Source: Lingula anatina (taxonomy: Eukaryota; Animalia; Brachiopoda). From it: DNA of 64,000 bases. The notes beneath the pieces were generated by a model. The model did no database searches, had not been told where the DNA came from, and saw only the letters and a list, made by a program, of their open reading frames with translations. Both the position numbers and the translations under genes were made by a program. Location of the stretch: positions 7,126,587-7,190,586 of the forward strand of contig CM120648.1 in NCBI GenBank assembly GCA_051362555.1. Direction: 5' to 3'. Positions 2,890 through 8,150 of the stretch are shown here, one piece after another (position 1 is the first letter of the stretch; each line of letters begins with the position of its first letter).

Positions 2890-5800
2890 AACGATGTGAA
2901 AATTAGAAATTGAGACGTCGCAGAGTAGTTTAGATGACGAAGATTTCTGAGTTCATTTTTTACTGATGACACAACTTATTGAAATTGGAACGTGATAAAG
3001 ATAGGGATGACGAAGATTTCTCACTGAATTTTTACTAATGACATTGTGAAATTGGAACGGTACACTGAAGATTGTGATGACGCAGATTTCTGCGTTCACT
3101 TTTTTTCTGATGACACAGCTTACTGAAACTGAGACGCCACAGAGTAGATTTGTATGACGAAGAGTTTTAGGTTCATTTTTACTGATGAAACTGCTAAGTG
3201 AAATTGAAACGTCATAGAGAACATAGGAATGACACAGATTTCTGCGGTTACTTTTACTAATAAACTCACCCTAAACATCTCTGTGACGCAGATTTCCGAG
3301 TTTATTTTGACTTATGACATAGGTAACTGAAATTGGAACGTCGCAGAGTACATTTGGATGATGAAGATTTCTGAGTTTATTTTTACTGATGACACAGCTT
3401 ATTAAAATTGGAACGTCACAGAGAAGATAGGAATGACACAGATTTCTCAGCTCACTTTAACTAATGAATTCAGTAATCTGAGTTCATTTTGACTTATGAC
3501 ACAGGAAAGTGAAATTGGAACGTCACAGAGAAGATAGGGATGACGCAGATTTCTGCGGTTACTTTTACTAATAAACTCACCCTAAACATCTCTGTGACGC
3601 AGATTTCCGAGTTAATTTTGACTTATGACATAGGTAACTGAAATTGGAACGTCGCAGAGTACATTTGGATGATGAAGATTTCTGAGTTTATTTTTACTGA
3701 TGACACAGCTTATTAAAATTGGAACGTCACAGAGAAGATAGGAATGACACAGATTTCTCAGCTCACTTTAACTAATGAATTCAGTAATCTGAGTTCATTT
3801 TGACTTATGACACAGGAAAGTGAAATTGGAACGTCACAGAGAAGATAGGGATGACGCAGATTTCTGCGGTTACTTTTACTAATAAACTCACCCTAAACAT
3901 CTCTGTGACGCAGATTTCTGAGTTTATTTTGACTTATGACATAGGTAACTGAAATTGGAACGTCACAGATAAAATAGGGATGGGGCAGATTTCTAAACTT
4001 ACTTTTACTAATTAACTCAGAAATGTGCGTCATTCTTAAGATAAGGATGACGCAAATTTCTGAGGTCACTTTCACTAAGAAATCTGCGTCACCCTAATCA
4101 TCTCTGTGACGCAGGTCTCTGAACTCATTTTGACTTATGACAAAGGAAAGCGAAATTGGAACGTCACAGAGAAGTTAGAGATGACGTAGATTTCTAAGGT
4201 CACTTTTACTGTTGACGCAGCTCATTGAAAGTGGAACGCAGGAGAGAAGATTGGGATGATGCAGACACCTGCGTTCATTAAACTCATGATGCGGTTATTT
4301 GAAATTGGAATTTCACAGAGAAGATGGGTATGACGCAGATATCTGAGCACTTTTTCAACTCATGAACTTAGAAATCTGTGTCATCCCCATCTTTGTGACG
4401 CAGATTTCTGATTCATTTTTACTGATGACACCGCTTACTGAAATTGGAACGTCACAGAGAAGATTGGGATGACACAGATTTGTCTTCTCTTCTCTGTGAC
4501 GCAGATTTCCGAGTTCATATTGACTTATGACATAGCAAAGTGAAATTGGAACGTCACAGAGAAGATGGTGATGACGCAGATTTCTGAGTTCATTTTTTAC
4601 TAATCGACTCAGAAATATGCGACACCCTAATCTTCTCTGTGACGAATGACATACTTTATTGAAATTGGAGTGTCACAGAGAACATTGGTATGTCGAGGAT
4701 CTCTGAGCTTACTTTTATTGTTGACGCAGCTCTTAAAAATTGGAACGCCACAGAGATTACTTTGAAGTCAGATCAAATTTTATTAATGGCGCAGTTTATT
4801 GAAATTGGAACCTCACAGAGAATAATGGAATGACGAAGATTTCATTTTTACTGATGACACAGCTGAAATTTGGACGTCACAGAGAAGGTAGGGATGACGC
4901 AGATTTCTAGTTCTTTTTTTACTGATGATGCCGCTTATTGACTTTGGAACGTCACAGAGTAGATTGGAAAGAGGCAGATTTCGGCGGTCACTTTTACTAA
5001 TAAACTCACCCTTATCATCTCTGTGACGCAGATTTCTGTGTTCATTTTTACTTATGACATTGCAAAGTGAAATTGGAACGTCACAGAGACGATAGGGATG
5101 ACCCAGATTTCGGACTTCACTTTTACTGATACTAAAATTGGAACGTCACAGAGAAAATACGGATGGCGCAAATTTCTTGACTTACTTTTATTAATTTACT
5201 CAGAAATGTGCGTAATTCCTAACCTTTTTTACTTATTTACGCAGATTTCTGAGTTCATTTTGACTGATGACATATCTAAGTGAAATTGAGACGTCGCAGA
5301 GTACATTTGGATGATGAAGATTTCTGAGTTTATTTTTACTGATGACACAGCTTACATGTATTAAAATTGGAACGTCACAGAGAAGATTGTGATGACGAAA
5401 ATTTCTCAGTGAATTTTTACTAATGACATTGTTTTGTGAAATTGGTACGGCACAGAGAAGATTGTGATGACGCTGATTTCTGCGGTCACTTTTACTAATA
5501 AACGAAGAAATCTGCGTCACCCTAATCATCTCTGTGAGGCAGGTTTCTGAGTTCATTTTGACTTATGACATAGCTTCTTAGAAATGGAACGTCAAAAGGA
5601 AGATTGGGATAACAAAGATTTCCGGGTTCATTTTTACTGATGACACAGCTTACTGAAATTGGCATGTCACAGAGAGGATAGGGATGACGCACATTTCTGA
5701 GGTCACTTTTACTAATGAACTCAGAAATCTGCGTCACCTTAATCATCTCTGTGACACAGGTTTCTGAGTTCATTTTTACTAAAGACATGCTTTATTGAAA

Positions 5801-8150
5801 TGGTAACGTCACAGAGGACATTGGTATGACGATCTGAAGATCTCTGAGGAGACTAGTTTGAAGTTAGATCATTTTTATTAATGACGCGGTTTATTGAAAT
5901 TGGAACCTCACAGAGAATATTGGAATGACAAAGCTCATTGGAATTGAAACGTCAAAGTGAAAATAGGGATGACGCAAATTTCTAGTTCTTTTTCACTGAC
6001 GATGCCACTGACGAGTTCATTTTGACTTATAACATGGCTAAGTGAAATTTATCCTAATCAGGATTTCATTTTGACTTATAACATAGCTGACTTATAACAT
6101 AGCTAAGTGAAATTTATCCTAATCATCTTTGTGACGTAGATTTCTGAGTTCATTTTGACATATGACACAGCTAATTGAAATTGGAACGTTATAGATAGGG
6201 ATGACGCAGATTTCTACGGTCACTTTTACCATTAACTCAGATATCTGCACCACTCTTATAATTTCTGTGACGCAGATTTCTAAGTTCATTTTGACTTATG
6301 ACATAGCTTATTGAAATTAGAACGTCACAGAGAAGATTGGGATGATCCAGATTTGTGAGTTTATTTTTTCACGATGGTGCAACTCAGTGAAATTAAAACG
6401 TCAAAAAGGGAGATGGGGATGGAGAAGATTTTTGAATTCACATTTAATACTGACATACTTTATTGAAATTGGAACTTCACAGAGAAGATGGGTATGACGC
6501 AGATATCTGAGCTCTTTTTAACTCATGAACTCGGAAATCTGTGTCATCCCCATCTCTGTGACGCAGATTTCTGATTCATTTTTACTGATGACACAACTTA
6601 TTAAAATTGGAACCTCACAGAGAAGATGGGTATGACACAGATATCTGAGCTCTTTTTAACTCATGATCTCAGAAATCTGTGTCATCCCCATCCCTCTGAG
6701 GCAGATTTCTGATTCATTTTTTCTGATGACACAGCTTATTGAAATTGGAACCTCACAGAGAAGATTGGGATGACGTAGATTTCTCAGTGAATTTTTACTA
6801 ATGACATACCTTTGTGAAATTGGAGAAGATAATGATGACGCAGATTTCTGAGGTCAATTTTACTGATGAACTCAGAAATCTGCGCTATCCCCATCTTCTC
6901 TTTGACGCAGATTTCTGATTCATTTTTACTGATGACATAGCTCATTCAAATTGGAATGCCACAGAGAAGATTGGTTTGAAGATTTCTGGGTTCATTTTTG
7001 CTTTTTGAAATTGGAACTTCACAGAGAAGATGATTATGACGCAGATACCTGAGCTCTACTTAACTAATGAACTCAGAAATCTGCATCATCCCCATCTCTG
7101 TGAGACAGATTTCTGATTCATTTTTTCTGATGACACAGTTTATTGAAATTGGAAAGTCACAGAGAAGATTGGAAACGTAGATTTCTCAGTGAATTTTTAC
7201 TAATGGCATCGCTTTGTGAAATTGGAGAAGATTATGTAACGCAGATTTCTGAGGTCAATTTTACTAATTAACTAAGAAATCTGTGTCACCCTTATCTTCT
7301 TTGTGACGCAAATTTCTGAGTTCATTTTGACTTATGACATAGCTTACAGAAATTGAAACGTCACAGAGAAGATATGGATAACTCGGATGTCTGACTTCAT
7401 TTTTACTGATAACACAGCTCGTTGAAAATGGAACGTCAAAAGGAGAAGATTGGGACGGCAAAGATTTCTGGGTTCGTTTTTTACTGATAGCACCGCTCAC
7501 TGAAATTGGAACGTCACAGAGAAGGTAGGGAGGACGCAGATTTCCGAGCTCAATTAAACAAATGACCTCAAACCTGCGTCATCCCCATCTCTGTGACGAA
7601 GATTGGTATGACAAAGGTTTCTGTGCACACATTTACTGATGATGCAGCTTACTGAAATTGGAACGCCATAGAGAAGACTGGGATGACGCAGATACCTGAG
7701 CTCTTTTTAACTCATGAACTCAAATCTGTGTCATCCCTATCTCTGTGACGCAGACTTCTCATTCAGTTTTACTAATAACATAGCTTATTGACATTGGAAC
7801 ATCACAGAAAAGATTGGGTTGATCCAGGTTTCTGAGTTTGTTTTCACGTTAGCGCAACTTACTGAAATTAAAACGTCAGAGTAGATGGGGTGACGAAGAT
7901 TTCTGAGTTTATTTTTACTAATGCCATACTTTTTTTAAATTGAAATATCACATAGAAGATTGGTACATGTATGACGAATATTTCTGAGCTCGCTTTTATT
8001 GTTGACGCAGCTTACTGAAATTGGAACGCCACAGAGAAGATTGGGATAATGCAGAGCTTACTGAATTTGGAACGCCAAGGAAAAGATTAGGATGACGCAG
8101 AGTGTCTTTAAAGAAAATTTGAATTGAAAAATGGACCGTCGCAGAGATCC
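2890..8150 (+). repeat. U6 snRNA-derived tandem array, ~75-bp unit with interspersed fold-back variants
   Basis: Consensus GACACAGCTTACTGAAATTGGAACGTCACAGAGAAGATTGGGATGACGCAGATTTCTGAGTTCATTTTTACTGAT, repeated roughly 45-55 times (estimate by eye); aligns to U6 ACTAAAATTGGAACGATACAGAGAAGATT and GGATGACACGCAAATTCGTGAAGCGTTCCATATTTTT. Confidence 0.9.
3251..3960 (+). repeat. 311-bp higher-order repeat within the array
   Basis: cttttactaataaactcaccctaaacatctctgtgacgc recurs at 3251, 3562 and 3873 with near-identical intervening sequence. Confidence 0.85.

Follow-up and report, generated by a model that had tools for sequence, protein, structure and literature searches.

A tandem array of about 5 kb, in which a unit derived from the U6 small nuclear RNA (snRNA) is repeated head to tail about 50 times, was found in a 64,000-nt stretch of Lingula anatina DNA (GenBank assembly GCA_051362555.1, contig CM120648.1, positions 7,126,587 to 7,190,586 of the forward strand). 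This whole stretch is called the window, and coordinates are counted from its first letter. The array is probably one member of a multi-locus satellite that descends from a truncated, internally deleted U6 copy and is decaying neutrally, likely without any U6-related function. The established parts of this account are the U6 ancestry of both blocks of the unit, a 17-nt deletion common to the units, inverted inserts with common breakpoints, and copies with other flanks. An earlier note, made from the letters alone, had placed a tandem array at 2890..8150; the array is real, its limits are 2902 and 8103 on the + strand, and contigs of two studies agree with it. The array and its parts are as follows.

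2902..8103, + strand: U6-derived array of 75-bp monomers (U6 23-52 + U6 70-107 + a spacer of ~15 nt), with 51 unit starts and 74 forward pieces.
4540..4604, + strand: unit nearest the consensus (94%).
3171..3969, + strand: recent 311-bp duplication within the array, 2.6 copies, 96% alike, with 304 nt exact at 3304/3615; seen in the assembly only, outside the read-contig check.
8126..8182, - strand: right boundary, a degenerate stretch in which antisense U6 with letters like those of the internal stem-loop (ISL) fits about as well as the unit; a hint only.

A profile of the monomer matched 74 forward and 16 inverted pieces in the array, and in the rest of the 64-kb window it matched two U6 genes only. 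Tandem Repeats Finder reported periods of 75, 102-107, 138, 217, and 311 in the array. After removal of six pieces from the recent exact duplication, 44 near-full units were left, with a mean identity of 84.7% to the consensus (75-94%) and 75% pairwise. The array end at ~8103 is followed by a degenerate tail that reaches ~8180; for the antisense U6 fit at 8126..8182, 5 of 3026 background windows scored equally high (a post hoc and weak comparison).

Alignment of the unit consensus to the two U6 genes nearby gave z = 11.8 and 12.5 (5000 dinucleotide shuffles each), and each block was significant alone, so the U6 origin proposed in the earlier note holds. The 5' block was identical to U6 23-52 at 26/30 positions; the 3' block alone, aligned to U6 70-107, had 26 identities in 29 aligned letters and three gaps of 2-3 nt, a score reached by none of 5000 shuffles. 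The 17 nt between them, U6 53-69, had been said to be missing from every unit read, and they were absent from all 46 units that span the junction (45 with a short junction and one with a 6-nt insert); the best score of U6 53-69 was 7 in the array vs 7-9 in nine background blocks. We take the AGC triad to lie within U6 53-69. The U6 5' stem-loop is also lost from the monomer. The ACAGAGA box, telestem region, and oligo-T end had been described as kept. The oligo-T ends are indeed retained (69 T-runs in the array, recurring every 72 nt), and 28 forward and 13 inverted copies have the exact box among 51 unit starts, but the telestem sequence is retained only in part, and folding predicts no telestem in the unit (-8.3 kcal/mol for the unit vs -26.8 for U6). 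The units are not U6 snRNA genes by the Rfam model RF00026, where the best unit scored 21.2 bits at a threshold of 44 bits; they carry the ACAGAGA box and oligo-T end of that model and lack its ISL with the AGC triad and its upstream promoter of a proximal sequence element (PSE) and TATA box.

The deletion falls on an imperfect direct repeat (U6 53-60 and 70-77, 6/8 identical). U6 has eight such pairs, and 3% of the possible deletions land on one, by a post hoc count. One unit has exactly the letters expected from slippage or end-joining at the direct-repeat junction. Since the deletion is common to all units, it points to a single event before amplification, and its early date means that loss of the catalytic core needs no selection as explanation. 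For the spacer, homology to U6 1-23 was not significant, and its derivation as a duplicate of the GATGAC block (10/13) was rejected (p = 0.17), as was a tRNA-derived origin, with no tRNA in the window.

The stretch was found in 9 of the 21 listed runs, all of organism A and from three studies. Contigs of runs X1 and X2, from two studies, covered 30/30 bins over 3950-8480, with 0-4 differences in the longest pieces, which rules out an assembly artefact for 3950-8480. Both runs also have contigs that are 80-95% alike, with identical differences and joints, and the three loose contig ends tested were all absent from the window (one test motif included four window letters). The repeat family occurs beyond this locus, at multiple loci of the same organism. 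The summed depth in X1 was 4163 at 6752 vs ~97 on a flank contig, which is no copy number, with units left of 3950 contributing. One contig, present in X1 as well as X2, runs from unit sequence into DNA resembling the U6a 3' flank (window 8401-8439), with the rest of the array skipped; it may represent another locus with array and flank, or a short allele. Exact-pattern scans of metagenome contigs, prokaryote genomes, and viral contigs gave no unit match, nor did blastn of phages; as none of these sets consists of animal genomes, the negative outcome carries little weight.

The array is not the plain tandem array described earlier, since 21 of its 51 unit starts lead into an interrupted or inverted segment. 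Examples are the following.

6461..6736, + strand: two adjacent 138-bp higher-order units, 92% alike, each with a forward arm, an inverted 40-bp insert, and a resumed forward half.
4552..4644: longest clean hairpin; its 43-nt arms are 81% complementary, and the folds of the two strands come to about -48/-51 kcal/mol.
5665..5756: hairpin of two 41-nt arms with 83% complementarity, among the 16 inverted inserts found with the profile.

In the typical interruption, the forward sequence stops at about column 68, inverted columns 57 to 15 follow, and the forward sequence resumes at column 35. The restart is at column 35 in 14 of 16 resumed pieces, and the breakpoints of the inverted inserts lie at about columns 15-57. 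Both switch points are microhomologies of the monomer (TCATT with AATGA and CGTCA with TGACG). Column 52 is G or C in 17/18 arms and T in 22/26 plain units, as linked alleles, and together with the common breakpoints this fits one fold-back origin. The resulting higher-order unit is 138-142 bp long and bears 40-bp hairpins, with predicted energies of -37 to -54 kcal/mol (five folded of at least 16 inverted inserts). Similarity between the two arms of one hairpin (0.755) did not exceed that between arms of different hairpins (0.761), which gives no co-variation, and G-U wobbles were without strand bias (26 vs 36, p = 0.25; 16 vs 17); the 16 hairpins are related to each other, so the arm and wobble counts are not independent. 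The array thus has the stable long hairpins of a hairpin-RNA or microRNA (miRNA) cluster, without pairing kept by co-variation or strand-biased G-U. Rfam miRNA matches in the hairpins were sub-threshold and reflect generic hairpins.

Tests of function gave flat conservation. The U6 5' block, the 3' block, and the spacer had column identities of 0.89, 0.86, and 0.83, with A columns best kept throughout. Conservation of ACAGAGA was 0.90 (base-matched p = 0.13; rank 15 of 65 windows), so the per-column comparison that the earlier note had proposed showed no excess of the box over the spacer. METTL16 needs the nonamer UACAGAGAA in a structured context, as in U6 and the MAT2A hairpins, according to the available text of PMC7229813. 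The array units have 0 copies of this nonamer (in 25 forward copies, the first U is replaced by C) and have lost the ISL bound by the METTL16 vertebrate-conserved region (VCR), and they do not qualify as METTL16 substrates. No PSE was found near the array; exact PSE-like matches in the window occur only at the two U6 genes, and the nearest other match, with two mismatches, is 1.7 kb before the array. The poly(A) run X11 gave seven array reads in 12.4 million, ~0.12 reads per kilobase per million (RPKM), which is background level, and X17 gave three partial reads that continue into unlike sequence. The suggestion that the array acts as a U6 mimic or decoy finds no support in these results. The function tests of the array point to neutral decay and leave room for small RNAs.

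Several points weigh against this account. The column-conservation test had modest power. The RNA results come from 4 of 9 listed RNA runs, all long-RNA libraries, with 6-25% of each run read; poly(A) libraries miss short RNA polymerase III (Pol III) or processed RNAs, and the runs included no small-RNA library. X14 and X16 gave 0 array reads, with the organism's presence in these runs unproven and no positive control. CpG was less depleted in the array (0.78) than in the remaining window (0.57). X20, under the same species label, had only core pieces with 4-7 differences, in 9/30 bins and at high depth. X10, of organism B, had 30-31-nt pieces with 1-3 differences from 8018-8049, two of which reached a depth of 10000; compared with canonical U6, 5/31 letters of that stretch differ. 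The X10 pieces, too short for proof, hint that a related repeat is highly amplified in another species, and the core pieces of X20 and X10 could mean that a U6-like core is kept across lineages; parts uncovered in these two runs prove no absence. The family is known from the window and contigs.

The array lies beside two U6 genes, listed below with the features around them.

8490-8596, - strand: U6a, an intact U6 snRNA gene, 116.7 bits (Rfam).
8597..8896, - strand: U6a promoter, with a TATA-like box at about -30 and a PSE-like element at 8643-8659; 188/300 letters are identical to the region upstream of U6b.
12913-13020, + strand: U6b, the second U6 gene, 105.1 bits, with a PSE-like element at 12850-12866.
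13254..13301, - strand: possible degenerate inverted U6 fragment with ISL-like letters, ~250 bp downstream of U6b; a hint only.

U6a and the array stand tail to tail 340 bp apart, which bears out the distance to a canonical U6 given earlier. The 300 bp upstream of U6a and U6b aligned with a score of 218 vs 114 +/- 9 in 200 shuffles, and the homologous upstream regions with common PSE-like and TATA-like elements make the two genes an old inverted duplicate pair. Homology of the regions downstream of U6a and U6b was rejected as not significant (8% of background windows). For the fragment at 13254..13301, 5 of 1246 background windows scored equally high, again post hoc and weak. Conservation of the two U6 promoters (8597-8896 and 12613-12912) extends over 300 bp and defines a TATA-like box, a PSE-like element of lingulids, and a common motif near -300. 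U6b has an intact-looking promoter and, in the assembly letters, one extra G in the ISL stem (12977-12978), at the edge of the target site of the Dada-U6 transposons considered below; judged from its letters, it may be a variant or a young pseudogene.

The satellite account would run as follows. A promoterless, inverted U6 copy would have arisen downstream of a U6 gene, and a single event, likely slippage or end-joining at the imperfect direct repeats U6 53-60 and 70-77, would have removed U6 53-69 from it. The 75-mer would then have been amplified via slippage and unequal exchange. Within one unit, fold-back of the nascent strand on a 5-bp quasi-palindrome was likely followed by backward copying of about 40 nt and rejoining at the TGACG microhomology, and the resulting hairpin-bearing higher-order unit of 138-142 bp would have been amplified as well. 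Units may since have drifted ~15% from the consensus, with occasional local duplications.

An alternative for the deletion step only, which is compatible with later neutral amplification, is that a U6-targeting Dada transposon made the founding deletion, through a cut or excision at U6 65-70 followed by end-joining at the nearest microhomology. We consider this unlikely, though it has several points in its favour. Dada-U6 inserts at U6 65-70 and is present in oyster and Capitella, according to the accessible part of PMC3706591, and the recognition sequence given in the accessible part of PMC8869645 spans U6 57-71, nearly all within the segment deleted here. The extra G of U6b sits at the edge of the site, and the window holds two decayed transposases of Dada type.

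22609-26319 and 28202-29239, - strand: two decayed Dada-type DDE transposase remnants (DUF6729) with frameshifts and stops.

These remnants, at 22.6-26.3 kb and 28.2-29.2 kb, are 10-16 kb from U6b. Word searches, Atlas, and protein motifs in the Dada supplements found no relatives of the transposase fragments, and a full HMMER scan did find them; the relatives have the 68-residue D-D spacing, DxxH, and CCCC + CCHC zinc fingers given for Dada. A 79% internal duplication (24249-25141 and 25556-26431) lies in the remnant region. However, the remnants are without flanking U6 halves, the Dada-U6 target site has 0 copies in the array, the direct-repeat pair accounts for the deletion without a transposon, and the extra G of U6b is seen in the assembly only. 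The array is no Dada-U6 insertion or derivative either. In the part of PMC3706591 available, the ends of Dada-U6 share the motif CAGAGAAGA with U6, and the element stands between U6 1-70 and U6 65-end with a 6-bp duplication and with CAGAGAAGA 14 nt from it. The array has 20 copies of CAGAGAAGA, 0 target sites, and only 3 nt between CAGAGAAGA and the U6 3' block, and exact inverted CAGAGAAGA copies number only two. The ends of fish Dada-U6 elements (14 of 66 supplement places) have another spacing and other upstream sequence than the unit. From what these two papers offer in part (PMC3706591, PMC8869645), the array is like Dada-U6 in its tie to U6 loci, in CAGAGAAGA, and in that the target lies in the segment deleted here, and unlike it in that it is without target-site duplication, transposase, or Dada end and its units continue into U6 on both sides of the motif.

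Other readings give the array a role. Read-through transcripts might form the 40-bp hairpins and be diced into endogenous small interfering RNAs that silence the repeat family and possibly trim convergent U6 expression. The number, stability, and pre-miRNA size of the inverted inserts, the tail-to-tail arrangement with U6a, and the few reads on the array speak for this, but the arms lack co-variation and G-U strand bias, the column-52 change peculiar to the arms costs the hairpin a base pair, the units diverge from U6 even in the best block, and Pol III would meet a terminating T-run every 72 nt on the + strand; we regard it as improbable. The array could also work as DNA, with half-sites or cruciforms that set chromatin or a boundary at U6, or with sites that bind Dada transposase without a cut site. 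It has 75 TGACG sites in 5.3 kb, each presumably a half-site of the cAMP response element (CRE), CpG above the window level, the CAGAGAAGA copies common to Dada-U6 ends and U6, and, maybe at another locus, the contig joint to U6a-3'-flank-like DNA. These motif counts are nevertheless expected from repetition alone, TGACG columns 38-39 are not unusually conserved (0.80, 0.79), exact inverted CAGAGAAGA copies are few, and the sequence that Dada-U6 reportedly recognises is the deleted part; the odds are quite poor. A bolder combination, for which there is very little likelihood, would have lineage-wide, uncleavable U6 look-alikes arise from a Dada-U6 break and serve as a DNA decoy beside U6, offering CAGAGAAGA in both orientations without a cut site, with hairpins that may yield small RNAs. 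Transcription of the units into short, non-catalytic mimics of U6 that would bind 5' splice sites or METTL16, Prp24, and LSm2-8 would suit the exact ACAGAGA of 28 forward units and the kept oligo-T ends; with no PSE, no 5' stem-loop, an unpredicted telestem, UACAGAGAA in 0 units, the VCR-bound ISL gone, a box not preferentially conserved, and near-background reads, it is barely plausible.

Protein-coding genes elsewhere in the window are the following.

42217-48489, + strand: MTHFR gene, several exons.
61870-63557, - strand: calsyntenin gene, 3' exons.

MTHFR has one unusually long exon (~650 bp); the exon at 43.9-44.6 kb shares 95% identity with Lingula anatina proteins, against 65% or less with the others among the matches listed, which marks the DNA as that of a lingulid brachiopod. 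A 74-bp tandem duplication in calsyntenin (62047-62196) repeats part of the transmembrane coding region. Two inverted-repeat pairs resemble ends of miniature inverted-repeat transposable elements (MITEs), 569-730/1472-1638 (83%, 171 bp) and 18381-18490/18822-18931 (97%, 110 bp), and a 240-codon open frame at 51216-51938 (- strand) has no Pfam match.

The earlier statement that no equivalent has been described was too strong, as U2_sat, a satellite family derived from the U2 snRNA gene, has been published from Ciona (Kojima and Jurka 2015, PMC4640811, as far as its available text goes). Both are spliceosomal-snRNA-derived satellites of a marine invertebrate, biologically near a transposon family that targets that snRNA. 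The array shares with U2_sat head-to-tail monomers homologous to an snRNA gene and, by the X1 and X2 contigs with loci uncounted, more than one locus; it differs in its source (U6, Pol III), fixed internal deletion, and fold-back higher-order unit, U2_sat being named only in passing in that text. The accessible parts of three further papers offer looser parallels. PcP190 of frogs (PMC11675491) likewise derives from a Pol III RNA gene, 5S ribosomal DNA, is ~70% like its parent, and occurs across related species, but it retains all 120 bp of the transcribed region, has one conserved and one variable part, and shows clear transcription, whereas the array is a gutted gene with flat conservation and background-level reads. 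Family 138A of Rana temporaria (PMC12054243) is tandem, in 35 arrays, and annotated as similar to U5/U4 snRNA, but this is a Dfam label in a table, its origin and structure are not analysed in that part, and it is not U6. SINEU of crocodilians (Kojima 2015, PMC4494074) is also a repeat family from snRNA sequence, but consists of dispersed retrotransposons (short interspersed elements, SINEs) with U1/U2 heads; the window copies are all tandem and tailless, without U6 1-15 or any snRNA 5' end, and do not belong to this type. In a paper on grasshopper repeats, U6 appears only among the multigene families. No U6-derived satellite or Lingula U6 repeat was found in the literature searched, with Repbase and most subscription journals outside reach.

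The array is apparently an undescribed, real U6-derived satellite family with a fold-back higher-order unit, and likely the U6 counterpart of the Ciona U2_sat, neutrally decaying and nearly silent. It extends snRNA-derived satellites from U2 to U6 and offers a legible satellite birth, in which the parent gene is 340 bp off and deletion, monomer, fold-back, and higher-order unit can each be read. The conserved lingulid U6 promoter elements are useful for a native U6 promoter. If the Dada link were true, target-specific transposons would seed satellites from host genes, and a DNA-decoy satellite, if it were one, would shield an essential snRNA gene from its target-specific transposon. If the core in the second organism is the same family, the repeat would be old and unevenly amplified, and could confuse U6 annotation and U6-based primers in brachiopods.

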